Source of the DNA: Alphaproteobacteria bacterium
GTDB taxonomy: Bacteria; Pseudomonadota; Alphaproteobacteria; SP197
DNA: 44,674 bases
Assembly (NCBI GenBank): GCA_022822575.1
Contig: JAJEBJ010000455.1
Coordinates: 1 to 44,674, forward strand
Direction of reading: 5' to 3'
Shown here in pieces: positions 3,032 to 12,345 of this stretch (its first letter is position 1; every line of letters starts with the position of its first letter). The notes beneath the pieces were generated by a model. It searched no databases and was not told the DNA's origin. It saw only the letters and a program-made list of their open reading frames with translations. The translations under genes were made by a program, and so were the position numbers.

Positions 3032-4195
3032 TCAAGCGCGCACGATGAGGGTTTGGGGCGAGCGCGTGGTGAGAATCTCACAACCCTTCTCCGTCAGGAC
3101 CGCGGAGTTGGAGATGAAGTAGTCGACGCAGTCCGTGTCGGTAAACCACGAATGAAGGTGAAACGACATGCCCTGCTTCATTTCCAGATCTGAATCGGGT
3201 GCAAGACTCGTGACCATGGAGCCTCCGGTCCAGCTCGGTGGGAAGCCGATCCCCGTCAGGTAGCCGCAGTGATGCCGCTCGTAGCCTTCGAGCCCCCGGC
3301 TTCTTGCGACTTCCCGCCAGGCAGCATAGGCGTCCCTGGCCCGTGCGCCCGGCACGATTGCGGCAACGATCGCCTCCATGGCGTCGATGGCCATCTCGAC
3401 GGAGCGTTCAACGTCGGCAGGGGCGCTTCCCACGTAGACCAGTCGGCCCATGGGCGCCTGGTACTTGCGGCAGGCTGCACCGATCTCCAGGAACACGGCA
3501 TCGCCGTTGCGAAACGTCTCGCCTCGCCACGTGGTGTGCTCCTCGCCGAGCCTGGAGGTCGGCCTGATGAACGGTCCGAAACCGGGATACTCGCTGCCCG
3601 CCAGACACAGGGCGCGCTGGCATTCGCCAGCGACTTCATGATCACTGGCGCCGTGGCGAATGGCGTCGATGGCCGCCAGCGTTCCGGCATCCGCCGCCTC
3701 GGCGGCTCGACGCGTGTAGGAAACTTCGAGCGGTGACTTGACGATCCGCAAGGTATCGATGATGCCCGAGCCGTCGCTCCATGCGGCCGCCGGAGCGCCG
3801 GCCTTGATGCGGCTTGCCGTATGCGGTGTGAGAAAGAGGGAGCGCTCCTCGAGTGCGACCCGGCCATCGCGAATTCCGAGAAGGCTCATCGCCTTGAGCA
3901 CATGGTCCGCCGGCTCCTCGCCATCGGAGTGACCGTCGAACGCGGCGTTGGCGACCTGGTTTGTGACCGTGATCTGCTCCATGGCCCGGGCGACAAGGCG
4001 CATCTCACCGTCGCGCGGCACGACGAGGACGTGTGTTGCGAAGAATCCCCAGTGATCGAGACCGGTGAGGTAGTAGATGTTCTCCGGACTGGCGACGAGT
4101 ATGCCGTCAAGATCACGCCCCGCCATTGTGTCGCGGAGCCTGTCAAGCCGTTGATCGAGTTCCTGGCGTGGAAAGGGCTCGTGAGCGGTCATCAT
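3032..4195 (-). CDS. M24-family hydrolase (creatinase / Xaa-Pro peptidase fold), divergent paralogue of the upstream DoeA-like gene
   Basis: There is a creatinase-type N-domain (ILVASPENIYYLTGLD) followed by a pita-bread C-domain (VKSPLEVSYTRRAAEAAD...). GGGAGG lies 6-8 nt before the ATG. It is the last gene of the nine-gene operon. Confidence 0.8.
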   Translation of the reverse strand: MMTAHEPFPRQELDQRLDRLRDTMAGRDLDGILVASPENIYYLTGLDHWGFFATHVLVVPRDGEMRLVARAMEQITVTNQVANAAFDGHSDGEEPADHVLKAMSLLGIRDGRVALEERSLFLTPHTASRIKAGAPAAAWSDGSGIIDTLRIVKSPLEVSYTRRAAEAADAGTLAAIDAIRHGASDHEVAGECQRALCLAGSEYPGFGPFIRPTSRLGEEHTTWRGETFRNGDAVFLEIGAACRKYQAPMGRLVYVGSAPADVERSVEMAIDAMEAIVAAIVPGARARDAYAAWREVARSRGLEGYERHHCGYLTGIGFPPSWTGGSMVTSLAPDSDLEMKQGMSFHLHSWFTDTDCVDYFISNSAVLTEKGCEILTTRSPQTLIVRA

Positions 4196-4222
4196 GCCGG
4201 CCTCCCGTGGATTGCTGGCCTG

Positions 4223-5410
4223 TCAGGTGATGACGCGGATGGCGCGTTCGACATCACAAAGGCGCTCGCCTCCGCCAGCGGTGACGACAAAGGACTCGGA
4301 AATCGCGGCGCCGTAGCGTTCCAGCCACACGCCCGACTGGAAGTGGAAGCACATGCCGGCCTCGAGGACGGTGTTGTCGCCGGGACGCAGGCTGGCGGTT
4401 CGTTCTCCCCAGTCGGGCGGAAAGCCGAGGCCGATTGAATAGCCCACGCGACTCTCCTTGCGGTAGCCGTGGCGGTTCAGCACGCCCTGCCAGACGGCCT
4501 CCACATCGGCGCATGTTGCACCGGGCCGGGCGGCCTCCAGCGCCGCGTTGCCACCGTCCACAATCGCTTCCGCAAGCCTGGCGACGTCACGCGGTGGCGT
4601 GCCGATATGCGCCGTCCGGGTCAGCGGCGCATGGTAATGGCGGCGGGCCGCAGCCAGCTCCATGACCACAAGCCCTTCATCGGGCAGGGCGTCGGATGTC
4701 CAGGTAAGGTGCGGGGTTGCCGTGCCTTCCCCAACCTGGATCAAAGGGCAGAGGCTGGTGTAGTCGCCGTGCCTTCCGTCGAGACCGCTGATCTGCGCGT
4801 GATAGACATCCGCGATAATGTCCATCTGCCGCACGCCCGGGCGAAGGCGCTCCAGCGCTCTTTCCATGACCCTTGTCGCAATTCTGCCGGCCTCGCGCAT
4901 GTACGACAGTTCCGCAGGCGACTTGACCAGTCGCGCCCAGTTCACCAGTTCGCGGTTGTCGGCGATCCGGGCGCCGTCCAGTCCGTCGACGAGGTGCCGG
5001 TGGGCTCTTGCCGTGTAATAGTGGGCGTCCAGTTCGACGCCAATGCGTGCCGAACTCCAGCCGCGCTGCCTGATCAGTTCGCACAGCTCGTCAAAGGGAT
5101 GGCGGTCCGGGTGGTGAACCAGGGGTTCGGAAAATGCCACGATGTTGTCGCCGGGAAGATCCGTCGTCAGAACGGCGGAAAGGGCGTCCTGAGCGCGGCC
5201 GAACCAAACCGGAAACCGGTCATCACGATGGAACAGCACGGCCTGTGGCGTATAGAACGACCAGCCGTCAAATCCTGTCAGCCAATGCATGTTCGCCGGA
5301 TCCTGGCAAATCAGAAGATCGAATCCAGCCTCGTCCATGTGTTGACGAACTTTGGCGCGGCGTTGCGCGTACTCAGATTCTTCGAATGCGGCTGTTGTCA
5401 TAAGGCTCAT
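4223..5410 (-). CDS. M24-family hydrolase, ectoine hydrolase (DoeA/EutD)-like
   Basis: 395 aa. The N-terminal block DPANMHWLTGFDGWSFYTPQAVL and the motif VKSPAELSYMREAGRI resemble DoeA/EutD as I remember them. The ATG directly abuts the upstream stop (TAGATG). Confidence 0.7.
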   Translation of the reverse strand: MSLMTTAAFEESEYAQRRAKVRQHMDEAGFDLLICQDPANMHWLTGFDGWSFYTPQAVLFHRDDRFPVWFGRAQDALSAVLTTDLPGDNIVAFSEPLVHHPDRHPFDELCELIRQRGWSSARIGVELDAHYYTARAHRHLVDGLDGARIADNRELVNWARLVKSPAELSYMREAGRIATRVMERALERLRPGVRQMDIIADVYHAQISGLDGRHGDYTSLCPLIQVGEGTATPHLTWTSDALPDEGLVVMELAAARRHYHAPLTRTAHIGTPPRDVARLAEAIVDGGNAALEAARPGATCADVEAVWQGVLNRHGYRKESRVGYSIGLGFPPDWGERTASLRPGDNTVLEAGMCFHFQSGVWLERYGAAISESFVVTAGGGERLCDVERAIRVIT

Positions 5411-6226
5411 CTAGGCTGTGGCGTAGCCCGACGCTGCATGGGGCGCCATGGCCCTTGCATGCGCGGCGATCGAGCGCGCCGTGAAACTGCCATCCGGCGG
5501 TGTATCACGGATGAAATGGCGCCAGGTGTCCCTGCCGCGCACCGGGATGGCAGACAGCGCCGGTCCGGCGGTCTGACGCACGTGGGCGGGCAGGTAGCGG
5601 ACCGCAACGGCGATGCGCGGCGACGCGGTACGGTTGATGCCGGACGCATGGGCAAGAAGACAGTGGTGGAGCGACATCTCCCCAGCGTTCAGGATGACCG
5701 GAACGGCGAGCGATTCATCCATATCGAGGACGATTTCCTGACCGCGGGTGAGGGCGCTTCGCTGGGACAGCGTTTCCCGGTGGCAGAGCTTGTCGTGTGT
5801 GTGGGTACCCGCCATGAAACGCATGCATCCGTTCTCGGGACGGGCATCGGTGAGGGCGATCCATGCGGTGCAGATCTCGAAGGGCTCGAGATTCCAGTAA
5901 TTGGCGTCCTGGTGCCAGTTGATGTGCTGCCGTTCCCCGGGCGGCTTGCAGAAGAGATCGGCCGCCTGAAGAAGGATGTCCGGCCCGATGACTGATTCGA
6001 CGCCGTCGAGCACGGCGTCATCTGTCGCGAGATCGAAGATCCAGTCGCAGAGCAGGTGCATCTTGATGCGCCAGGGGTGCTGCAGATCCGCCGGTGGTTG
6101 CTCCAGGAGCCTCTCGACGCGCGCGGCCGCTTCGCTGGCCCTTGCCGCGCCGATCGCATCCAAGGGAAAGACGTAGCCATCCCGCCTGTAGCGCAGCGCC
6201 GCTTCATTCGGGCGCTCGTCAGTCAT
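5411..6226 (-). CDS. phytanoyl-CoA dioxygenase (PhyH) family Fe(II)/2-oxoglutarate-dependent oxygenase
   Basis: WHQDANYW (the HxD iron motif), a later HH..LAHASG.N and an R near the C-terminus fit the PhyH/EctD-like superfamily. The start overlaps the upstream stop (ATGACTGA). Confidence 0.8.
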   Translation of the reverse strand: MTDERPNEAALRYRRDGYVFPLDAIGAARASEAAARVERLLEQPPADLQHPWRIKMHLLCDWIFDLATDDAVLDGVESVIGPDILLQAADLFCKPPGERQHINWHQDANYWNLEPFEICTAWIALTDARPENGCMRFMAGTHTHDKLCHRETLSQRSALTRGQEIVLDMDESLAVPVILNAGEMSLHHCLLAHASGINRTASPRIAVAVRYLPAHVRQTAGPALSAIPVRGRDTWRHFIRDTPPDGSFTARSIAAHARAMAPHAASGYATA

Positions 6227-7052
6227 GGTGCCGTTCCCACAGGATCGGCAGGAGGTCGCAGCGGTAGGGACCGCCTTCGATGAGTCCGTACTCCGCTTCC
6301 AGGAAATCCGTCATGTCGCGGGTCCAGGACCCCCGCCGACGATAGATGGCATCGCCCTCGGCGAAGCGCATGGTGAACCGCCTTGTGGTGCGTTGCGGTG
6401 GAGTGGCGTCTGGTGTGCCGTGCACCATGTGCGAATCGAAGACGAGGCAGTCTCCGGGCTGGAGCGCGTAGTCAACCCGGTCGCCGTGCTCGCTCAGACG
6501 GGAGAAATCGGGAGTCCTCTCGTAAATTCCGCGGGGATCGGCTTTCGGTCCGGTGCCCGCGAAACTCTCCGGCATGAAGAGCCTGTTCCATGTATGGGAC
6601 CCCTTGAGAAACGTGACGCCTTCGCCCCGGGCGACCGGCTCGAGAGCCATCCACAGCACGCACCATGTACCGTCAAGATCGAAATACGGTGCATCGTGAT
6701 GCCAGGGTGCCCGGTTGACGGCACCGGCCTTGCGTACGAGCCAGTTGTCGGTCACGAGCATCACGGAAGCAACGTCCATGAGTTCGCCGGTGATCCGGGC
6801 CGCAGGTGAATCGAAGATGAAATCACGCATCGCCGGCACCTGCTGCCAGATCCAGAAATCCGTGCAGTACGTGCCGGGTTTCGTATCCGCCGAATAGTCG
6901 ACAAACATCGGTCCGGGGCTTGCCATGCCCTGGTCGATGGCGTCGGAAGCAACGGCCAGCCAGTGAGGGTCGAAAGCCTCGCGAAGGCAGACAACCCCGT
7001 CCTCCTTGTAGGAGGCACGTTGCTCCGGCGTCGTCAGTAGCGAGTCAGGCAT
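6219..7052 (-). CDS. phytanoyl-CoA dioxygenase (PhyH) family Fe(II)/2-oxoglutarate-dependent oxygenase (second, divergent copy)
   Basis: PWHHDAPYF (HxD) and FDSHMVHG (distal His) are present. I place the start at the ATG at 7052 (MPDSLL...) because GAGGAG lies 5 nt upstream and overlaps the ehuA stop. The tracked ORF extends to 7106. Confidence 0.8.
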   Translation of the reverse strand: MPDSLLTTPEQRASYKEDGVVCLREAFDPHWLAVASDAIDQGMASPGPMFVDYSADTKPGTYCTDFWIWQQVPAMRDFIFDSPAARITGELMDVASVMLVTDNWLVRKAGAVNRAPWHHDAPYFDLDGTWCVLWMALEPVARGEGVTFLKGSHTWNRLFMPESFAGTGPKADPRGIYERTPDFSRLSEHGDRVDYALQPGDCLVFDSHMVHGTPDATPPQRTTRRFTMRFAEGDAIYRRRGSWTRDMTDFLEAEYGLIEGGPYRCDLLPILWERHHD

Positions 7053-7059
7053 GGGCTCC

Positions 7060-7872
7060 TCAATCCGCATCGAGCACGGCGCTGAGGAACATCCTTGTGC
7101 GCTCATTCTGCGGGTTGCCGATCAGCTGGTCCGGCGGGCCCTGCTCGGCAATCCTGCCCTCGTAGAAGAAGCAGACGCGATCCGAGATTTCGCGGGCAAA
7201 TCCCATCTGGTGCGTCACGATGATCATGGTCAGGTCATGTTCTCTGGCGAGCTTGCGAATGACGTTGAGAACCTCGCCGATCACCTCCGGGTCAAGGGCC
7301 GAGGTGACCTCATCGAAGAGCATGACCTTCGGCCGCATGGCAAGCGCCCGGGCGATGGCGACGCGTTGCTGCTGGCCGCCGGAGAGGCGCGACGGATGCT
7401 GGCCCGCCTTGTCGGCAATGCCCACCATGGTCAGGAGTTCCATGGAGCGCTCCCGCGCCTCATCCTTGCCGAGCCCCAGCGACTGCACGGGGGCCTCCAT
7501 GCAGTTCTCGAGCACGGTCATGTGAGGAAAGAGATTGAAGTGCTGGAACACCATGCCGATGTCCGATCGCATCCTCCTGAGGTGCGCGCTGCCGGCTCCG
7601 ACCAGGATTCCATCCCGTTCCATGTGGGTGAGCGGCTGACCATAGAGATAGATGACGCCGTCATCGATGGGTTCGAGAGTCATCAGGACGCGCAGGACCG
7701 TGGTCTTGCCCGAGCCGGACGGCCCGATGATCGAGACGATTTCATTGGCTGCGATGTCGAGATCAAGTGAATTGAGCACCGTGAGATCGCCGTAACGCTT
7801 GGACACCTTGGAGAACCGCACCGCAGGTGGATCATTTTCCTTCAGCCGGAGGGGATGTGCATTTCGGTCCAT
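7060..7872 (-). CDS. ehuA: polar amino-acid/ectoine-type ABC transporter ATP-binding protein (EhuA-like)
   Basis: It has Walker A GPSGSGKTT, the signature LSGGQQQRVAIARAL and Walker B VMLFDEVTSALD. The start is uncertain: ATG at 7872 or TTG at 7911. Confidence 0.85.
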   Translation of the reverse strand: MDRNAHPLRLKENDPPAVRFSKVSKRYGDLTVLNSLDLDIAANEIVSIIGPSGSGKTTVLRVLMTLEPIDDGVIYLYGQPLTHMERDGILVGAGSAHLRRMRSDIGMVFQHFNLFPHMTVLENCMEAPVQSLGLGKDEARERSMELLTMVGIADKAGQHPSRLSGGQQQRVAIARALAMRPKVMLFDEVTSALDPEVIGEVLNVIRKLAREHDLTMIIVTHQMGFAREISDRVCFFYEGRIAEQGPPDQLIGNPQNERTRMFLSAVLDAD

Positions 7873-7897
7873 GACTTTGTCTTGTCCCGGCAGCCCG

Positions 7898-8566
7898 TCA
7901 ATCGACACCAAGCGTGCGCCGGGTCCATGTCTCGAACCTTCTTAGACCGAATGCCGCCGGCAGGGAAATGGCGAGGAAGATGATGCCGACCAGGGTATAG
8001 GGCTCGAGAAAGCGGTAGGTTTCGGAGCCGACAGCATTGGCGGTGTGAAGGAGCTCGGCGACCCCGATCACAGAGAGCATCGGCGTGTCCTTGAAGATAC
8101 CGACAAGATAGTTCCCCATGCCCGGGATGGCGGGTGGCAGCGCCTGGGGAATGATGATCCTGAAGTAGCTCCTCCGTGTTGACAGATTGAGGGCCTTGCA
8201 GGCTTCCCATTGTCCCTTCGGAACGCTGTCGAGACCCGCCCGGTAGACTTCGGAAAGGTACGAGGCGTAGTGCAGGCCGATGGCGATCATGCCGGAGGTC
8301 CAGGGAGAGAGCGTCACGCCCACCTGCGGCCCGACGTAGAAGATGAAGAAGATCTGCAGGACCAGCGGCGTGGAGCGAATGAACTCGACGCATTCGCGTA
8401 TGGCGATCGTGAGAAGGGTGATGGACGTGCGCTGTCCCAGTGCGAAGGCCAGCCCGACCACAAGGGCGATGGCGTAGCCGATCCCGGCGGCGAGCAAGGT
8501 GTTGGTGGTGGCCAGGAGGAGACGCGGCAGAATCTCGAAGGTGAAGTCCCATTTCCAGTCGAACAT
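7898..8566 (-). CDS. ehuD: ABC transporter permease (EhuD-like, His/Glu/Gln/Arg/opine family)
   Basis: 222 aa and multi-pass hydrophobic, with an EAA-type loop (EACKALNLSTRRSYFRIIIPQAL). Confidence 0.8.
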   Translation of the reverse strand: MFDWKWDFTFEILPRLLLATTNTLLAAGIGYAIALVVGLAFALGQRTSITLLTIAIRECVEFIRSTPLVLQIFFIFYVGPQVGVTLSPWTSGMIAIGLHYASYLSEVYRAGLDSVPKGQWEACKALNLSTRRSYFRIIIPQALPPAIPGMGNYLVGIFKDTPMLSVIGVAELLHTANAVGSETYRFLEPYTLVGIIFLAISLPAAFGLRRFETWTRRTLGVD

Positions 8567-8569
8567 GGC

Positions 8570-9247
8570 CTATGCTCCGGGGATCCGGCCCATCTTGCGC
8601 GCCATGAATCTCTCGAGGGCCAGCATCGACGGCGATATCAGCAGTCGTGCCAGGAGGTAGTAGATGATGAGCGCTGTGCCGAAGGCCTCGGCGGAAAGGA
8701 AAGTCGAGCCGTTGATCTGGCGCGCCTCGAACATGAGGTCGGTGACGGAGATGAGCGCCACCAGCGCCGTTCCCTTGAGAAGCTCGATGAAGAGGTTGCC
8801 CCAGGGCGGCAGCATGGCGAGCAGCGCCTGCGGCAGGATGATCCTCGTCATGCGCTTGTAGGGGGAGAGATTGAGCGCGATGGCGACTTCGTACTGGCCG
8901 CGCGGAACCGAAATGATGGCGCCGCGGACGACTTCGGCTCCATAGGCGCCGAGATTCATGCCGACTGCGATGAAGCCCGCCGTGAATTTCTCAAGGGTGA
9001 TGCCGAACAACGGCAGCACGAAGAAGATCCAGAACAGCTGGATAAGGAGGGACGTTCCCCGGAAAATCTCGATGTAGGTGGTGGCAACGGAGCGGACGAG
9101 GACCAGCTTCGAGAGCTTCATCAGTCCCATCAGGAGGGCGATGGCAACCGCCAGCAAGGCGGCGAGCACGGTCTGCTGGACCGTGACGATGGTTCCGTCG
9201 ATGAAGCGCGGGCCGTACTCCACCAGAAAATCGAGGTAGTGTTCCAT
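8570..9247 (-). CDS. ehuC: ABC transporter permease (EhuC-like)
   Basis: 225 aa, paralogous to the downstream permease, with an EAA loop (EVAIALNLSPYKRMTRIILPQAL). Confidence 0.8.
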   Translation of the reverse strand: MEHYLDFLVEYGPRFIDGTIVTVQQTVLAALLAVAIALLMGLMKLSKLVLVRSVATTYIEIFRGTSLLIQLFWIFFVLPLFGITLEKFTAGFIAVGMNLGAYGAEVVRGAIISVPRGQYEVAIALNLSPYKRMTRIILPQALLAMLPPWGNLFIELLKGTALVALISVTDLMFEARQINGSTFLSAEAFGTALIIYYLLARLLISPSMLALERFMARKMGRIPGA

Positions 9248-9270
9248 CAGGAGTGCCCGCCGGTTTCAGA

Positions 9271-9314
9271 ATCCAGGGCCTCCCGACCGGGACAATGATC
9301 GGGAGGCCCTGGAT
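9271..9314 (-). promoter_or_regulatory. intercistronic stem-loop: perfect 16-bp stem with a 12-nt loop, between the binding-protein gene and the first permease gene
   Basis: ATCCAGGGCCTCCCGA (9271-9286) is the exact reverse complement of TCGGGAGGCCCTGGAT (9299-9314). There is no U-run after it on the minus-strand transcript, so it is not a classical intrinsic terminator. Confidence 0.6.
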
Positions 9315-9336
9315 CAAACACGCTGCAATCTGACGG

Positions 9337-10191
9337 TCAGCGGTTGGCGCAGGCATACTCCGTTTTGCCATCGCCTGGCAGTTGGGATGCCGTGTAGTCG
9401 TACTCCGCCACGGCGGCCATCATCGCGTCCGAACCGATCCAGGACGCCAGCGCATCATTGAACGCTGCGACGAAATCGGTGTCCTCGTGACGGAACGCTA
9501 TTCCGACCCAGTTGAAGGTCCATTCCGGGAGAAGGGATGGATCGGTGATGTCGATTTCGCCTTCGCTCTCCGCGGCAAGGGAGCGTGCCGTGAAGAACGT
9601 CACACCGCCGGCGTCGGCGCGGCCGGCGCGGACTGCGGCAAGAATCTCCGTGGGGCCGGGAACCTGCATGATGTTGGAGTCCTCGATGCCCATTCTCTTG
9701 GCGACTTCAACGATGTTGTAGCCTGCTCCGGTGACGATGATCGCTCCCATGTCGCGGATATCGTCGTAGGTCTGGATCCCCTTCGGGTTGCCTGCCGGGA
9801 CGATGAAGGCATCGCCGAACACGCCGATCGGTTCGGAAAACGTCACGTTCTCGCAGCGGCTGGCGAGGATGTACATTCCGCCGGTGATGATATCGAAACG
9901 ATTGGCGTTGAGCCCGGGAATCAGGCCGCCCCAGTCGGTCACCACCGGTTCGATATTGGTGATTCCCATCTCGGTCAGGATGCCGGTGGCGATTGCATTG
10001 ACGAAACCGAGCGGCTCGTTGTCCTCGCCGGGATAGGCCCACGGGACCTCGTTGGCAAAGCCGATGCGCACGGTTTCGCCGGCCATTGCCTTTTCGAGGA
10101 GTGTATGCCCATCCGCCTGGACCTGTGTTGTCCAGGGGGTCAGGACAAGGCTCGCGACGATCGCCGCCCACGATAACTTCATGAACTTCAT
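9337..10191 (-). CDS. ehuB: periplasmic substrate-binding protein of the ABC importer (EhuB-like, ectoine/hydroxyectoine-type)
   Basis: The start is set at MKFMKLSWAAIVASLVLTPWTTQVQA (a signal peptide). The mature part has type-II SBP blocks (LIPGLNANRFDIITGGMY, GNPKGI). The 81-aa upstream extension in the ORF track overlaps the M20 gene and is not protein-like. Confidence 0.8.
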   Translation of the reverse strand: MKFMKLSWAAIVASLVLTPWTTQVQADGHTLLEKAMAGETVRIGFANEVPWAYPGEDNEPLGFVNAIATGILTEMGITNIEPVVTDWGGLIPGLNANRFDIITGGMYILASRCENVTFSEPIGVFGDAFIVPAGNPKGIQTYDDIRDMGAIIVTGAGYNIVEVAKRMGIEDSNIMQVPGPTEILAAVRAGRADAGGVTFFTARSLAAESEGEIDITDPSLLPEWTFNWVGIAFRHEDTDFVAAFNDALASWIGSDAMMAAVAEYDYTASQLPGDGKTEYACANR

Positions 10192-10252
10192 GATGCATGA
10201 TCTCCGGATTGTCTCTTGAAATGTGCTGTACTCTGGCACGGGGTTGCTCCTG

Positions 10253-11422
10253 TCACAAGGAAGACGCCAGCTGGCGTCCCATCTTGCCGAGAAACTCGAG
10301 TCCTTCGGCCAATTCACCGAGTTCGATGTACTCGTCCGGCTTGTGAGCGCGCTCGATGCTGCCGGGTCCGAAGACGATGGTCGAGTACGCCGCTTCGCTG
10401 AAGTACCCGGCGTCCGTGCCGAAGGAGACGACATCCGCGCTGTTGAGCCCCGTCAGGCCCCGGACGAAGTCGATCGCGTCGCCGGCGTGGCGGTCGTCGA
10501 GACCCGGAACACGGGCCTCGATGGTCGTCACGATATCGGCCTCGGGGCAGCGCTCGCGCATTTCCGGAACGAGTTGCCGTTCACAGTAGCGGCGTATGTC
10601 ATCGACGAAATCCATCCCGTCGTCTCCCGGAAGCATGCGGATCTCCCAGTCGAATTCACACCATCCGGACGTGATGTTGCGCGCCGTTCCACCGTTGATC
10701 CTGCCGACATTGAGCGTTGGAAACGGCGGATCGTAGGGCGATTCCGCGACAGGATCGGCGGCGCACCTTTGGGCGTGTTCCTCGATGCGGCTGATGAGGC
10801 GCATGGCGTAGGCGATCGCGTTGACGCCGTTGAAGGGGTTGCACGAATGGGCCTCGAGGCCCGTGACGACGGTATGGAGTTCGATGGCCCCCTTGTGGCC
10901 CGAGACAATCTTCATGGTTGTCGGTTCACCGACGATGACGATGCCGGGGCGGAAGTCCCTCTTCGCCATGTCCCGCAACAGCACGGGCATGCCGAACCCG
11001 CCGATCTCCTCGTCGTACGTGAAGGCAATGTGGATGGGCCGCGAGAGTTCCATCTCCTGCCACGCCGGAACCGATGCCAGGACGCAGGCAAGGAAACCCT
11101 TCATGTCGACCGTACCGCGGCCATGGAGTCGATCACCGATCCGCGTCACTCGGAAGGGATCGGTCTTCCAGTGCTGACCGTCGACAGGCACCACGTCCAT
11201 GTGACCGCACAGCACGACACCTCCGTCGCTCGATGGTCCTATGGTGGCGAAGACGTTGGCCCGCTCCCCAGATTCATCGAAACTCAGCGACGAGGGAATC
11301 CCCCGGACCTCCAGAACGTCCCTGACGATGCCGACGATGTCGTGGTTGGGTTTTCCCGACACGCTCGGGCACGCGACCAGACGGGAAAGAATGTCGACGG
11401 CCGCATCAAGGTTCGCGTTCAC
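10253..11422 (-). CDS. M20-family deacylase (ArgE / acetylornithine deacetylase-like)
   Basis: LSRLVACPSVSG, VVLCGHMDVVP and TYDEEIGG are the M20 metal-binding pattern. I prefer the GTG at 11422 (preceded by GGGCGAGG) over the ATG at 11536, but this start choice is uncertain. Confidence 0.8.
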   Translation of the reverse strand: MNANLDAAVDILSRLVACPSVSGKPNHDIVGIVRDVLEVRGIPSSLSFDESGERANVFATIGPSSDGGVVLCGHMDVVPVDGQHWKTDPFRVTRIGDRLHGRGTVDMKGFLACVLASVPAWQEMELSRPIHIAFTYDEEIGGFGMPVLLRDMAKRDFRPGIVIVGEPTTMKIVSGHKGAIELHTVVTGLEAHSCNPFNGVNAIAYAMRLISRIEEHAQRCAADPVAESPYDPPFPTLNVGRINGGTARNITSGWCEFDWEIRMLPGDDGMDFVDDIRRYCERQLVPEMRERCPEADIVTTIEARVPGLDDRHAGDAIDFVRGLTGLNSADVVSFGTDAGYFSEAAYSTIVFGPGSIERAHKPDEYIELGELAEGLEFLGKMGRQLASSL

Positions 11423-11556
11423 CTGGCCTCGCCCTCCCCGCGCCCGAAAGGCTCGGAGGGTACGCAGTGGGTGAGACCGCTGTAAAGCCCGTTGCCGCGG
11501 GAGGGTGCTTGCAGATAGCGTTGCAACATCGGGCACGGTGTTCCGGAGACGGGTCG

Positions 11557-12345
11557 ATGGCGTGGAACCTCTTGTTCATTTCGATGTTCGGTGAGCGGGA
11601 TCAGTACGATCCCGTGAACTATCGCAGCATCTGTTCCTCGGGCCTCGAAAAGGACTGGATCGTGACATGGCACGCTGATGCTGCCGAACGGTCAGGCTTC
11701 TCGATGACAGCCGTCGACATCTGCCGCGGGGATGTGCTTCCCGAGGCCAGCCTGGTGGATTGCACAATTCTCGGTGGAACGATGCATGTCATCGACGAGA
11801 AGCGCGAATGGCTCGGCAGACTGAAGGACTGGCTCGCCGCCTACCGCGAGACGGCGCGACCCCTGCTCGCGGTCTGCGGCGGCCATCAGCTCCTCTCCAC
11901 GCGCCTGGCAGACGGCCGGCTCGTCGGCCGCCGCTCGGGCACCCTCGCCGGCACCAGCGACATACGCCTGACGGAGCGCGGCAGATCGCATGAGCTGTTC
12001 GCGGGACTCGGGCCGACAGCGCGATTTCACTTTGCCAACTATCTCGATGTCGAACCGTCGCCGGCGCAGCGCGAGCGCGTGCTTGCTGTGGACGATGAAA
12101 GCGAGGGCCTTGCCATCGATCACGGGGGCCACTGGTACAGTACGCAGTTTCATCCTGAATCCCGCAAGGCCACATGGGCGTGCACCTACGGCGCATCGCA
12201 TCCCGAATGGATCGATGCCTACGATGACGAGCATGACGGCGGCGTTGTGATCGACAACTTCCTCAAGCTTGCAGCGTCAGCCCAGACTTCGGCGGGACAG
12301 GCCCGATCAGTCGCGGCGTCCCGTCCCGCGGGCCACGGCGGATGA
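11557..12345 (+). CDS. class-I (type 1) glutamine amidotransferase domain protein
   Basis: The nucleophile elbow LLAVCGGHQLL and a later QFHPE are present. The ATG at 11557 is preceded by GGAG. Confidence 0.8.
   Translation: MAWNLLFISMFGERDQYDPVNYRSICSSGLEKDWIVTWHADAAERSGFSMTAVDICRGDVLPEASLVDCTILGGTMHVIDEKREWLGRLKDWLAAYRETARPLLAVCGGHQLLSTRLADGRLVGRRSGTLAGTSDIRLTERGRSHELFAGLGPTARFHFANYLDVEPSPAQRERVLAVDDESEGLAIDHGGHWYSTQFHPESRKATWACTYGASHPEWIDAYDDEHDGGVVIDNFLKLAASAQTSAGQARSVAASRPAGHGG

Follow-up and report, generated by a model that had tools for sequence, protein, structure and literature searches.

Among marine osmolytes, ectoine and hydroxyectoine are widespread and also serve as nitrogen-rich nutrients, and the canonical gene clusters for their use are ehuABCD-eutABCDE of Sinorhizobium meliloti, uehABC-usp-eutABCDE-asnC-ssd-atf with enuR of Ruegeria pomeroyi and doeABCD of Halomonas elongata. 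Only one ectoine catabolic scheme has been established, and it leaves the functions of EutA, EutB and EutC unexplained (PMC8739950). Boas Lichty et al. (2026, PMC13188858) described putative variant ectoine clusters with two eutD homologues and no eutE from Thermodesulfobacteriota and from Bacillota/Actinomycetota; those of the second group also have abgB, an amidohydrolase gene. These clusters keep eutB, eutC and atf, and some are accompanied by EhuABCD; no oxygenase was reported in them and none has been experimentally validated (PMC13188858). Here we analyze a nine-gene block at positions 3032-11422 of contig JAJEBJ010000455.1, from an alphaproteobacterial sponge symbiont (assembly GCA_022822575.1), in a stretch of 44,674 nucleotides (nt) that we refer to as the window. 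We conclude that this block, hereafter the operon, is probably a variant uptake and catabolism unit for ectoine, 5-hydroxyectoine or both, or for a very close analogue, a reading for which the described variant clusters provide a precedent. Sequence comparison further indicates that clusters related to this locus recur among sponge symbionts, Arenicellales and roseobacters as a mosaic family, which appears to replace EutE, to drop EutA and to add new enzyme clades. We refer to members of this family as modules.

The operon and the features next to it are as follows.

10253-11422, minus strand: M20, an ArgE-type deacylase, the first gene of the operon, with a GTG start (Pfam Peptidase_M20 and M20_dimer)
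9337-10191, minus strand: SBP, a periplasmic EhuB-like substrate-binding protein (Pfam SBP_bac_3)
9271-9314, minus strand: inverted repeat with a perfect 16-bp stem and a 12-nt loop, between the SBP and EhuC genes
8570-9247, minus strand: EhuC-type permease (BPD_transp_1; TIGR03004 score 245, cut-off 197)
7898-8566, minus strand: EhuD-type permease (BPD_transp_1; TIGR03003 score 279, cut-off 205)
7060-7872, minus strand: EhuA-type ATPase (ABC_tran; TIGR03005 score 403, cut-off 345)
6219-7052, minus strand: PhyH1, an Fe(II)/2-oxoglutarate (2OG) oxygenase of a MysH-like subfamily, part of the conserved core (Pfam PhyH)
5411-6226, minus strand: PhyH2, an Fe(II)/2OG oxygenase of a ThoJ-like subfamily, a lineage-specific addition (Pfam PhyH, 102 bits)
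4223-5410, minus strand: M24a, a predicted DoeA/EutD-like hydrolase (Creatinase_N and Peptidase_M24; TIGR02993 score 418)
3032-4195, minus strand: M24b, a second creatinase-fold hydrolase in a clade of its own, part of the core (Creatinase_N and Peptidase_M24)
11557-12345, plus strand: divergent class-I glutamine-amidotransferase-like amidase (Pfam GATase; Cys (CGGHQ) and HPE motifs)

All nine genes of the operon lie on the minus strand with intergenic gaps from -8 to 89 nt: 61 nt between M20 and SBP, 89 between SBP and EhuC, 3 between EhuC and EhuD, 25 between EhuD and EhuA, 7 between EhuA and PhyH1, -8 between PhyH1 and PhyH2 (ATGACTGA), 0 between PhyH2 and M24a (TAGATG) and 27 between M24a and M24b. 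An earlier note, made from the sequence alone, had described nine tightly packed same-strand genes with these domains and no adjoining regulator gene within the window; coordinates, gaps and Pfam assignments all agree with that description, and neither the block nor its flanks within the window contain a regulator gene. Its inventory nevertheless overlooked the divergent amidotransferase-like gene, which belongs to the same unit. The listed open reading frame of this gene starts too early, at 11467, while its orthologues align from about 11566, and on this alignment we place the true start at the in-frame ATG at about 11557. The resulting 134-nt region between this gene and the M20 start (11422-11557) is the sole candidate for a divergent promoter/operator region. 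A scan for sigma-70-like sites and terminators at the operon ends found none, which is uninformative at 63% GC. Besides the amidotransferase-like gene, the flanks of the block encode cobalamin genes and lipid A genes. Pfam and NCBIfam scans of the nine-gene block detected no EutA, EutB, EutC, EutE, DoeC or DoeD gene, and neither the operon nor its flanks contain DoeD/DoeC or Atf/Ssd (transaminase and semialdehyde dehydrogenase) or EnuR genes.

The importer provides the first link to ectoine. EhuA, EhuC and EhuD all pass their NCBIfam equivalog cut-offs and the SBP falls just below that for EhuB, which bears out the Ehu-type transporter recognized in the earlier note. The closest solved relative of the SBP is EhuB 2q88 (PDB search, E 1.3e-23). 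Its pocket reads E48, W51, W87, Y107 and R112 (E-W-W-Y-R), as opposed to E-F/Y-Y-F-R in EhuB, and the same pattern is present in 20 of 21 module SBPs and in three more proteins, found when 150 genomes of the class were sampled for relatives of EhuB, two of which are encoded beside DoeA-like genes. We take the ligand contacts of EhuB to be Glu21, Phe24, Tyr60, Phe80 and Arg85, plus Thr133/Glu134. These positions fit the spacing of the pocket of P. lautus EhuB, composed of E110, Y113, F149, F169, R174, V222 and E223, whose aromatic residues (Y, F, F) indicate that the cage of genuine EhuB proteins varies as well (PMC6915088). The SBP therefore looks like a distinct EhuB-like subfamily in which the Glu, three aromatics and the Arg are kept in kind, and its carboxylate clamp, Glu and aromatic cage would suit a zwitterion with a delocalized cation.

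A second link is provided by M24a, which matches DoeA 6twk with an E value of 2.6e-103 and an identity of about 50% as estimated from the alignment. As a conservation reference we used 84 near-invariant columns in 22 DoeA sequences, 9 of which are encoded with an adjacent DoeB. M24a retains 77 of these columns (92%) and its substitutions are conservative, whereas M24b retains only 40 and has most of its changes in the catalytic C-terminal half; the two proteins are 28% identical to each other. In a maximum-likelihood tree of 60 creatinase-fold proteins, M24a and its relatives form a clade of six members inside the DoeA-like group but outside the core clade that holds all above-cut-off DoeA proteins, while M24b falls apart from them in a separate clade with 99% support and a long stem. 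Placing both M24 proteins in a phylogeny, a check proposed earlier along with the suggestion that one of them is DoeA-like, thus upholds that suggestion for M24a and sets M24b aside. DoeB/EutE genes adjoin DoeA in canonical loci only. We conclude that M24a is very probably a metal-free DoeA-type ring hydrolase in a sister subfamily to the canonical clade, and that M24b appears to be a related but distinct hydrolase of the same fold with a remodelled pocket.

Both M24 proteins belong to a fold better known for peptidases, and together with the ArgE-type M20 they raise the possibility of an ordinary polar amino-acid or dipeptide importer, unconnected with osmolytes, that is accompanied by ArgE and Xaa-Pro dipeptidases. 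The M20 does pass two acetylornithine-deacetylase models (NF005710, 454 against a cut-off of 412; TIGR01892, 358.5 against 297.7), the M24 proteins give weak PepQ hits and the SBP is of family 3. However, an alignment with prolidase 1pv9, whose metal ligands we take to be D209, D220, H284, E313 and E327 in a numbering consistent with the sequence motifs, places E237, P248, Y312, H348 and S362 of M24b at these five positions. To judge from the sequences, the first three of them follow the M24b-like pattern in M24a and DoeA as well. This replacement of the prolidase metal ligands argues that M24a and M24b are not metallopeptidases and, with all five ligands replaced in M24b, an M24 metallopeptidase identity (prolidase or aminopeptidase P) was ruled out. 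In addition, M24a is of the DoeA type, the SBP scores 182 on the EhuB model compared to only about 53 on Lys/Arg/Orn and cystine models, and the blocks of relatives are associated with EutB and EutC-like genes. We therefore considered the dipeptide explanation and rejected it as scarcely credible. The genomic context instead argues for a catabolic N-acyl compound as the physiological substrate of the M20. The block contains no gene of the AstE/AspA family to which DoeB/EutE belong. We propose that the M20 is an N-acetyl-diaminobutyrate deacetylase standing in for DoeB/EutE.

Loci in other genomes bridge the operon to hydroxyectoine catabolism. Two of these contain the additional E-W-W-Y-R proteins mentioned above (genomes G146 and G186) and a third is in a sponge metagenome-assembled genome (MAG), with the following gene content.

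G146/L155, first arm, divergent from the second: GntR, an ArgE-like M20 (455 bits on the same model as the M20 of the window) and a DoeA-like hydrolase (580 bits)
G146/L155, second arm, importer part: E-W-W-Y-R SBP, EhuC, EhuD, EhuA and EutB (431.6 bits, cut-off 413)
G146/L155, second arm, continued: EutC-like (457 against a cut-off of 472; 476 on the cyclodeaminase model, cut-off 408), CN_hydrolase, M24b-like and class-III aminotransferase
G186/L156: GntR and a DoeA-like hydrolase (561 bits), divergent from SBP, EhuC, EhuD, EhuA, EutB (429) and M24b-like
Sponge MAG L038: PhyH1 (75% identity), EutC-like (442), importer, M20, EutB (420, cut-off 413), GntR and a hydrolase of the M24a clade (432 bits)

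The M24b-like protein of G146 is 46% identical to M24b and 26% identical to M24a. No M20, EutC-like gene, CN_hydrolase or aminotransferase was detected at G186/L156. Thus, every unusual component of the operon except PhyH2 is found elsewhere alongside hallmark hydroxyectoine genes. This comparative context, with EutB, EutC-like and DoeA-like genes beside relatives of the operon, favours the ectoine or hydroxyectoine option among those raised in the earlier note. The placement of an M20 where DoeB/EutE would be expected, also pointed out there, gains from the recurrence of the pairing of M20 with a DoeA-like hydrolase in two other genomes beside EutB and EutC-like genes.

Based on these comparisons, catabolism of ectoine or hydroxyectoine by the operon might proceed as follows. 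The solute would be imported by the SBP together with EhuC, EhuD and EhuA. M24a would open the tetrahydropyrimidine ring to give N-alpha-acetyl-diaminobutyrate, from which the M20 would strip the acetyl group in place of EutE/DoeB. A second hydrolase/amidase pair would consist of M24b and the amidotransferase-like amidase, and its substrate may be the hydroxylated solute, the alternative regio-isomer of ring opening or a product of an oxygenase. PhyH1 and PhyH2 would take over the poorly understood EutA/EutB/EutC steps by oxygen-dependent chemistry. The operon has no genes for the last steps, which lead from diaminobutyrate to aspartate.

The two oxygenases are not detectably similar to each other and are not close paralogues (pairwise BLASTP E = 8). 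H118, D120, H211, R225 and R229 of PhyH1 are invariant in 14 homologues and H105, D107, H193 and R204 of PhyH2 are likewise invariant, so that both proteins appear to possess the H-x-D...H iron triad and the 2OG-binding Arg expected of Fe(II)/2OG enzymes. The PhyH2 model (predicted local distance difference test score 93.5) has ThoJ 6zyl as its best structural match (Z 32.8, 36% identity, E 3.5e-47) as compared to a Z of only about 20 with EctD; we take ThoJ to be a beta-hydroxylase of a dimethylhistidinium residue in the ribosomal peptide thioholgamide. The PhyH2 family is large, with 3657 hits, among marine sequences. For PhyH1, a homologue profile gave MysH as the best PDB match (9c9n/9pze, E ~3e-35), and a search of a protein atlas returned only generic PhyH clusters. 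Orthology of either protein with EctD was ruled out, with PhyH2 scoring 30.3 on TIGR02408 (cut-off 336.5) and PhyH1 giving no hit. The earlier assignment to the superfamily of EctD therefore holds at the level of superfamily and fold, but the nearest characterized relatives are MysH and ThoJ.

The similarity of PhyH1 to MysH raises the further possibility that the pathway degrades mycosporine-like amino acids, with PhyH1 removing an N-carboxymethyl group as MysH does and M24b hydrolyzing the vinylogous amidine. In favour of this, MysH is the closest relative of PhyH1 with a solved structure, and the reaction proposed for it is hydroxylation of a mycosporine-like amino acid at the alpha-carbon of the C3 glycyl group, which is then lost by hydrolysis (PMC10666671). 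The hosts are marine, and our literature search yielded no catabolic route for these compounds. Against this, the SBP is of an EhuB-like type for small ligands, DoeA-like, EutB and EutC-like genes accompany the module, PhyH1 and MysH are only about 30% identical (an estimate from the alignment), and no other gene suggests a cyclohexenimine substrate. This makes mycosporine catabolism a very improbable function.

The distribution of the module separates its constant from its variable parts. A profile of PhyH1 homologues was used to collect 80 loci from contigs of one genome per species, followed by synteny mapping. PhyH1 (at least 54% identity) lies beside an Ehu-like importer in 22 of the 80 loci, and 20 of these 22 also have M24b. 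Outside the roseobacters the hosts are the genus of the window, a Hyphomicrobiales MAG, an uncultured alphaproteobacterium, two Arenicellales MAGs, a Candidatus Poriferihabitaceae MAG and two sponge gammaproteobacterial MAGs; the roseobacter hosts are Shimia abyssi DSM 100673, Ruegeria lacuscaerulensis HKCCD5857, a Pacificibacter MAG and an uncultured Rhodobacteraceae genome. Importer, M24b, PhyH1 and an amidase thus constitute a core conserved across Alpha- and Gammaproteobacteria, whereas M24a, PhyH2 and M20 are additions confined to the genus of the window with partial overlap in two other MAGs. This revises the earlier idea that the second M24 hydrolase and both oxygenases had been added to the transporter and a DoeA-like enzyme: M24b and PhyH1 are core members, and it is M24a, PhyH2 and M20 that are lineage-specific. 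The survey of the 80 loci, of a kind that the earlier note had suggested for the whole nine-gene block, finds that importer, M24b and PhyH1 recur and that M24a, PhyH2 and M20 stay largely within the genus.

Relatives of the operon carry a GntR/FCD-type regulator. For example, one arm of the Shimia module consists of SBP, EhuC, EhuD, EhuA, an aspartate dehydrogenase, a pyridoxal phosphate (PLP) dehydratase, GntR/FCD and the amidotransferase-like gene, and the divergent arm consists of M24b followed by PhyH1. The PLP dehydratase of the roseobacter and Arenicellales modules has threo-3-hydroxy-L-aspartate ammonia-lyase as its best hit (322 bits), below every equivalog cut-off, and their aspartate dehydrogenase scores 325 bits in Shimia against a cut-off of 253. 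The amidase next to M24b is amidotransferase-like in most lineages, including L044, L047 and the roseobacters, but it is a nitrilase-superfamily protein (CN_hydrolase) in Poriferihabitaceae (L048) and G146 and an amidase-signature protein in L046. The amidase has been non-orthologously displaced among module lineages, and the occurrence of three unrelated amidase families at the position adjacent to M24b argues for a required amide-hydrolysis step that follows M24b, as in the EutD/EutE pair.

These features of the core could also be accounted for by an oxygen-dependent ectoine/hydroxyectoine route that bypasses diaminobutyrate and leads through oxidation, M24b and amidase steps to aspartate or 3-hydroxyaspartate. 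In such a route PhyH1, aided by PhyH2 in this genus, would oxidize ring carbon C6 next to the amidinium nitrogen, M24b would open the oxidized ring to an asparagine- or aspartate-type amide, and the amidase and M20 would release aspartate, or 3-hydroxyaspartate in the case of hydroxyectoine. This would explain the interchangeable amidases, which are expected to favour primary amides, and the constant absence of EutA. It would also explain why roseobacters and Arenicellales have a 3-hydroxyaspartate-dehydratase-like enzyme and aspartate dehydrogenase and not a transaminase and semialdehyde dehydrogenase. We consider this scheme rather unlikely. Of the alternative oxidative route that the earlier note envisaged for ectoine or hydroxyectoine, the link to these solutes is favoured by the bridging loci, while the oxidative chemistry is something that we infer.

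Several observations relate to how the module and its parts are dispersed. The M24b copies of roseobacters (L050, L051, L054, L049) are near-identical across genera with branch lengths of no more than 0.07, and the Shimia abyssi module adjoins SLT and VirB4/TrbE-type conjugation genes (L054:11520-15396), which together suggest recent horizontal spread of the roseobacter module on a mobile element. Short contigs binned as a Polaribacter MAG (L052 and L053) carry roseobacter-like M24b and PhyH1 and are probably a binning error and not an occurrence in Bacteroidota. In Arenicellales (L042:10861-17400) two tandem Ehu-like importers follow PhyH1, with SBPs that are 78% and 69% identical to that of the window and that both have the E-W-W-Y-R pocket. 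A lone PhyH1 homologue of 70% identity lies between DDE transposase genes in a Paracoccaceae MAG (L040:7064-9783) and is probably a relic of a disrupted module, while another (L041) adjoins uvrB with no functional context. PhyH1-like proteins at 35-45% identity are present in many marine Gammaproteobacteria without importer or M24 genes.

A number of results weigh against assigning the operon to ectoine itself. The SBP scores 182.1 on the EhuB model TIGR02995, just under the cut-off of 190.9, and its identity to a genuine EhuB (L148, 399 bits, pocket E-Y-Y-F-R) is just 27%. All three of its aromatic cage residues differ from those of EhuB, and its equivalents of Thr133/Glu134 align ambiguously (N159/I160 or V161/E162) and are not clearly kept; in the alignment of SBP and EhuB, put forward earlier as a check, the Glu, the Arg and the aromatic positions of the pocket agree in kind. 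M24a scores 417.6 on the DoeA model TIGR02993 (cut-off 613), and M24b has DoeA_2 as its best NCBIfam match with 206 against a cut-off of 575 and scores 149.6 on TIGR02993. Even at the bridging loci DoeA-like proteins reach 561-580 of 613, EutC-like proteins 442-457 of 472 and EutB barely passes, and no module locus contains an EutA-like gene. The operon itself is devoid of EutB, EutC, transaminase and dehydrogenase genes, and the source MAG has 18 matches to the DoeA model, all creatinase-fold M24 proteins (for example C202:7070-8212, C403:2772-3806 and C20:1357-2544), a number that would fit a variety of substrates. Moreover, the closest characterized relatives of both oxygenases act on other delocalized-cation substrates, and we found no experimental datum for any module member. 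With the exception of EhuA, EhuC and EhuD, the pathway-specific proteins are at or below curated cut-offs, and a whole pathway that is slightly off its reference scores could indicate a related but different solute.

Such a solute would be another ectoine-like zwitterion, such as a cyclic amidine, guanidino or imidazolium carboxylate from sponge or plankton, that is handled by a paralogous pathway with the same architecture and shifted specificity. Beyond the low scores, this explanation draws on the uniform E-W-W-Y-R pocket, on the remodelling of M24b at about half of the DoeA-invariant positions, on the different compounds used by ThoJ and by MysH (where the nitrogen was judged amidinium-like) and on the abundance of DoeA-model matches in the host genome. 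In addition, four of the five module-bearing genomes tested hold a further DoeA-like gene elsewhere (501-675 bits, two above cut-off), and the two such genes whose contexts were examined adjoin a TRAP or Pot-type transporter. These two, from Shimia abyssi (501 bits; L120:4335-10667) and Arenicellales (619 bits; L118:7871-10943), are in non-canonical contexts with no DoeB nearby; the Shimia gene neighbours a TRAP large-permease gene and a metal-dependent hydrolase and the Arenicellales gene neighbours Pot-type ABC permeases. However, three importer components pass curated cut-offs, M24a retains 92% of the DoeA-invariant residues, EutB is above cut-off in three related loci, the aromatics of genuine EhuB are themselves variable, and no result points to an alternative natural ligand. 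We therefore regard a shifted substrate as the less likely, although plausible, explanation, and continue to favour ectoine, hydroxyectoine or a very close analogue.

The operon is part of a MAG of 3.46 Mb in 498 contigs (97% complete, 7.9% contamination), and sponge metagenomes of several studies contain the DNA of the window. Seven congeneric genomes, all sponge MAGs, have the nine-gene block intact and in the same gene order, with amino-acid identities of 84-100% in six and 58-86% in one. Its outer flanks differ among these genomes, and a conserved block with differing flanks in seven congeners argues for an association beyond chance. Five of the seven also have a complete amidotransferase-like gene next to the block, and a sixth has a partial match to it. 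Model searches of the source genome yielded no above-cut-off DoeA, EutA, EutC or EutE; the best matches are 203 for EutA (cut-off 318), 128 for EutC (472) and 253 for EutE (402.7), the last on another contig. The source MAG also contains nine matches to PhyH1 with similar PhyH counts in congeners, so that the M24 and PhyH families seem to have expanded across the genus. No second related cluster was found around other M20, amidase or M24 paralogues on contigs C484, C138, C202 and C403. A tandem double EctC (ectoine-synthase) cupin protein of 274 amino acids is encoded on contig C437 of the source MAG (10960-11784) next to a TauD-family dioxygenase, and a homologue with 49% identity directly adjoins the module in the Hyphomicrobiales MAG (L044:14015-15127).

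Contigs assembled from RNA libraries of two sponge samples in one study span the whole SBP gene and also cover fragments of M24b, PhyH1, EhuA, EhuD, EhuC and the amidotransferase-like gene. As assembled contigs and not reads, with DNA carry-over possible and a depth that cannot rank genes, they are consistent with expression of the operon in its host but are not proof of it; the lack of RNA-contig cover over most of M24a, PhyH2 and M20 carries no information on expression. The SBP-spanning contigs of the two samples end at 9319 and 9392, just before the inverted repeat at 9271-9314, and are deeper than other RNA pieces. The hairpin may stabilize an SBP segment of the mRNA, for which this is only a weak hint.

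Literature searches on a MysH structure, on bacterial catabolism of mycosporine-like amino acids and on ectoine together with dioxygenase or aspartate dehydrogenase returned nothing on the module, and no description was found of the M24b clade, of MysH- or ThoJ-like oxygenases in this context, of the amidase displacement or of the E-W-W-Y-R SBP subfamily. Should ectoine be the substrate, the module would represent alternative chemistry that could clarify unexplained hydroxyectoine steps, and many marine metagenome genes now labelled “M24 peptidase”, “PhyH” or “ArgE” would receive a corrected annotation. Should it be another solute, then the family would point to an osmolyte or nutrient, so far unrecognized, that is exchanged within sponge holobionts. 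The presence of the core module in the cultured strains Shimia abyssi DSM 100673 and Ruegeria lacuscaerulensis HKCCD5857 makes the hypothesis testable.

When compared with known systems, the operon resembles canonical ectoine clusters in combining a binding-protein-dependent importer with a predicted M24 ring hydrolase and an N-acyl deacylase in one unit, and its module relatives have EutB, EutC-like genes and an aminotransferase. It departs from them in having an ArgE-type M20 and a Cys-type amidase instead of EutE/DoeB of the AstE/AspA family, and in the M24b clade, two PhyH oxygenases and E-W-W-Y-R pocket that it adds. EutA is missing from the module loci and the operon also does without EutB, EutC, Ssd and Atf; there is no EnuR/AsnC regulator, with GntR/FCD present in relatives. 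Two DoeA/EutD-like hydrolases and a missing eutE are shared with the variant clusters of Boas Lichty et al., and some of those resemble the operon in their amidohydrolase (abgB) and EhuABCD importer as well. The two kinds of cluster differ in that the operon has two Fe/2OG oxygenases and a displaced amidase, is without eutBC, and belongs to lineages of sponge and marine Alpha- and Gammaproteobacteria. The AbgB-type enzymes of those clusters, whose family was not named in the report, are presumably members of the M20 family.

The individual enzymes also have counterparts in other pathways. MysH of Nostoc linckia, from palythine biosynthesis, is of the same PhyH subfamily as PhyH1 with the same H-x-D...H motif, and its substrate has a carboxylate-bearing carbon on a nitrogen that we judge to be part of a delocalized cation, as in ectoine. 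However, MysH is part of a biosynthetic mysABCD cluster while PhyH1 is part of an importer/hydrolase operon. ThoJ, the non-heme iron monooxygenase of thioholgamide biosynthesis (6zyk, 6zyl), is the best relative of PhyH2 by both structure and sequence, whereas EctD (3emr, 4q5o) has the same PhyH superfamily fold and is not an orthologue. Finally, although the operon itself has no dehydratase or aspartate dehydrogenase gene, the beta-hydroxyaspartate dehydratase BhcB and iminosuccinate reductase BhcD, like EutB and EutC, follow the same dehydratase-plus-imine-reductase logic as the modules of roseobacters and Arenicellales.

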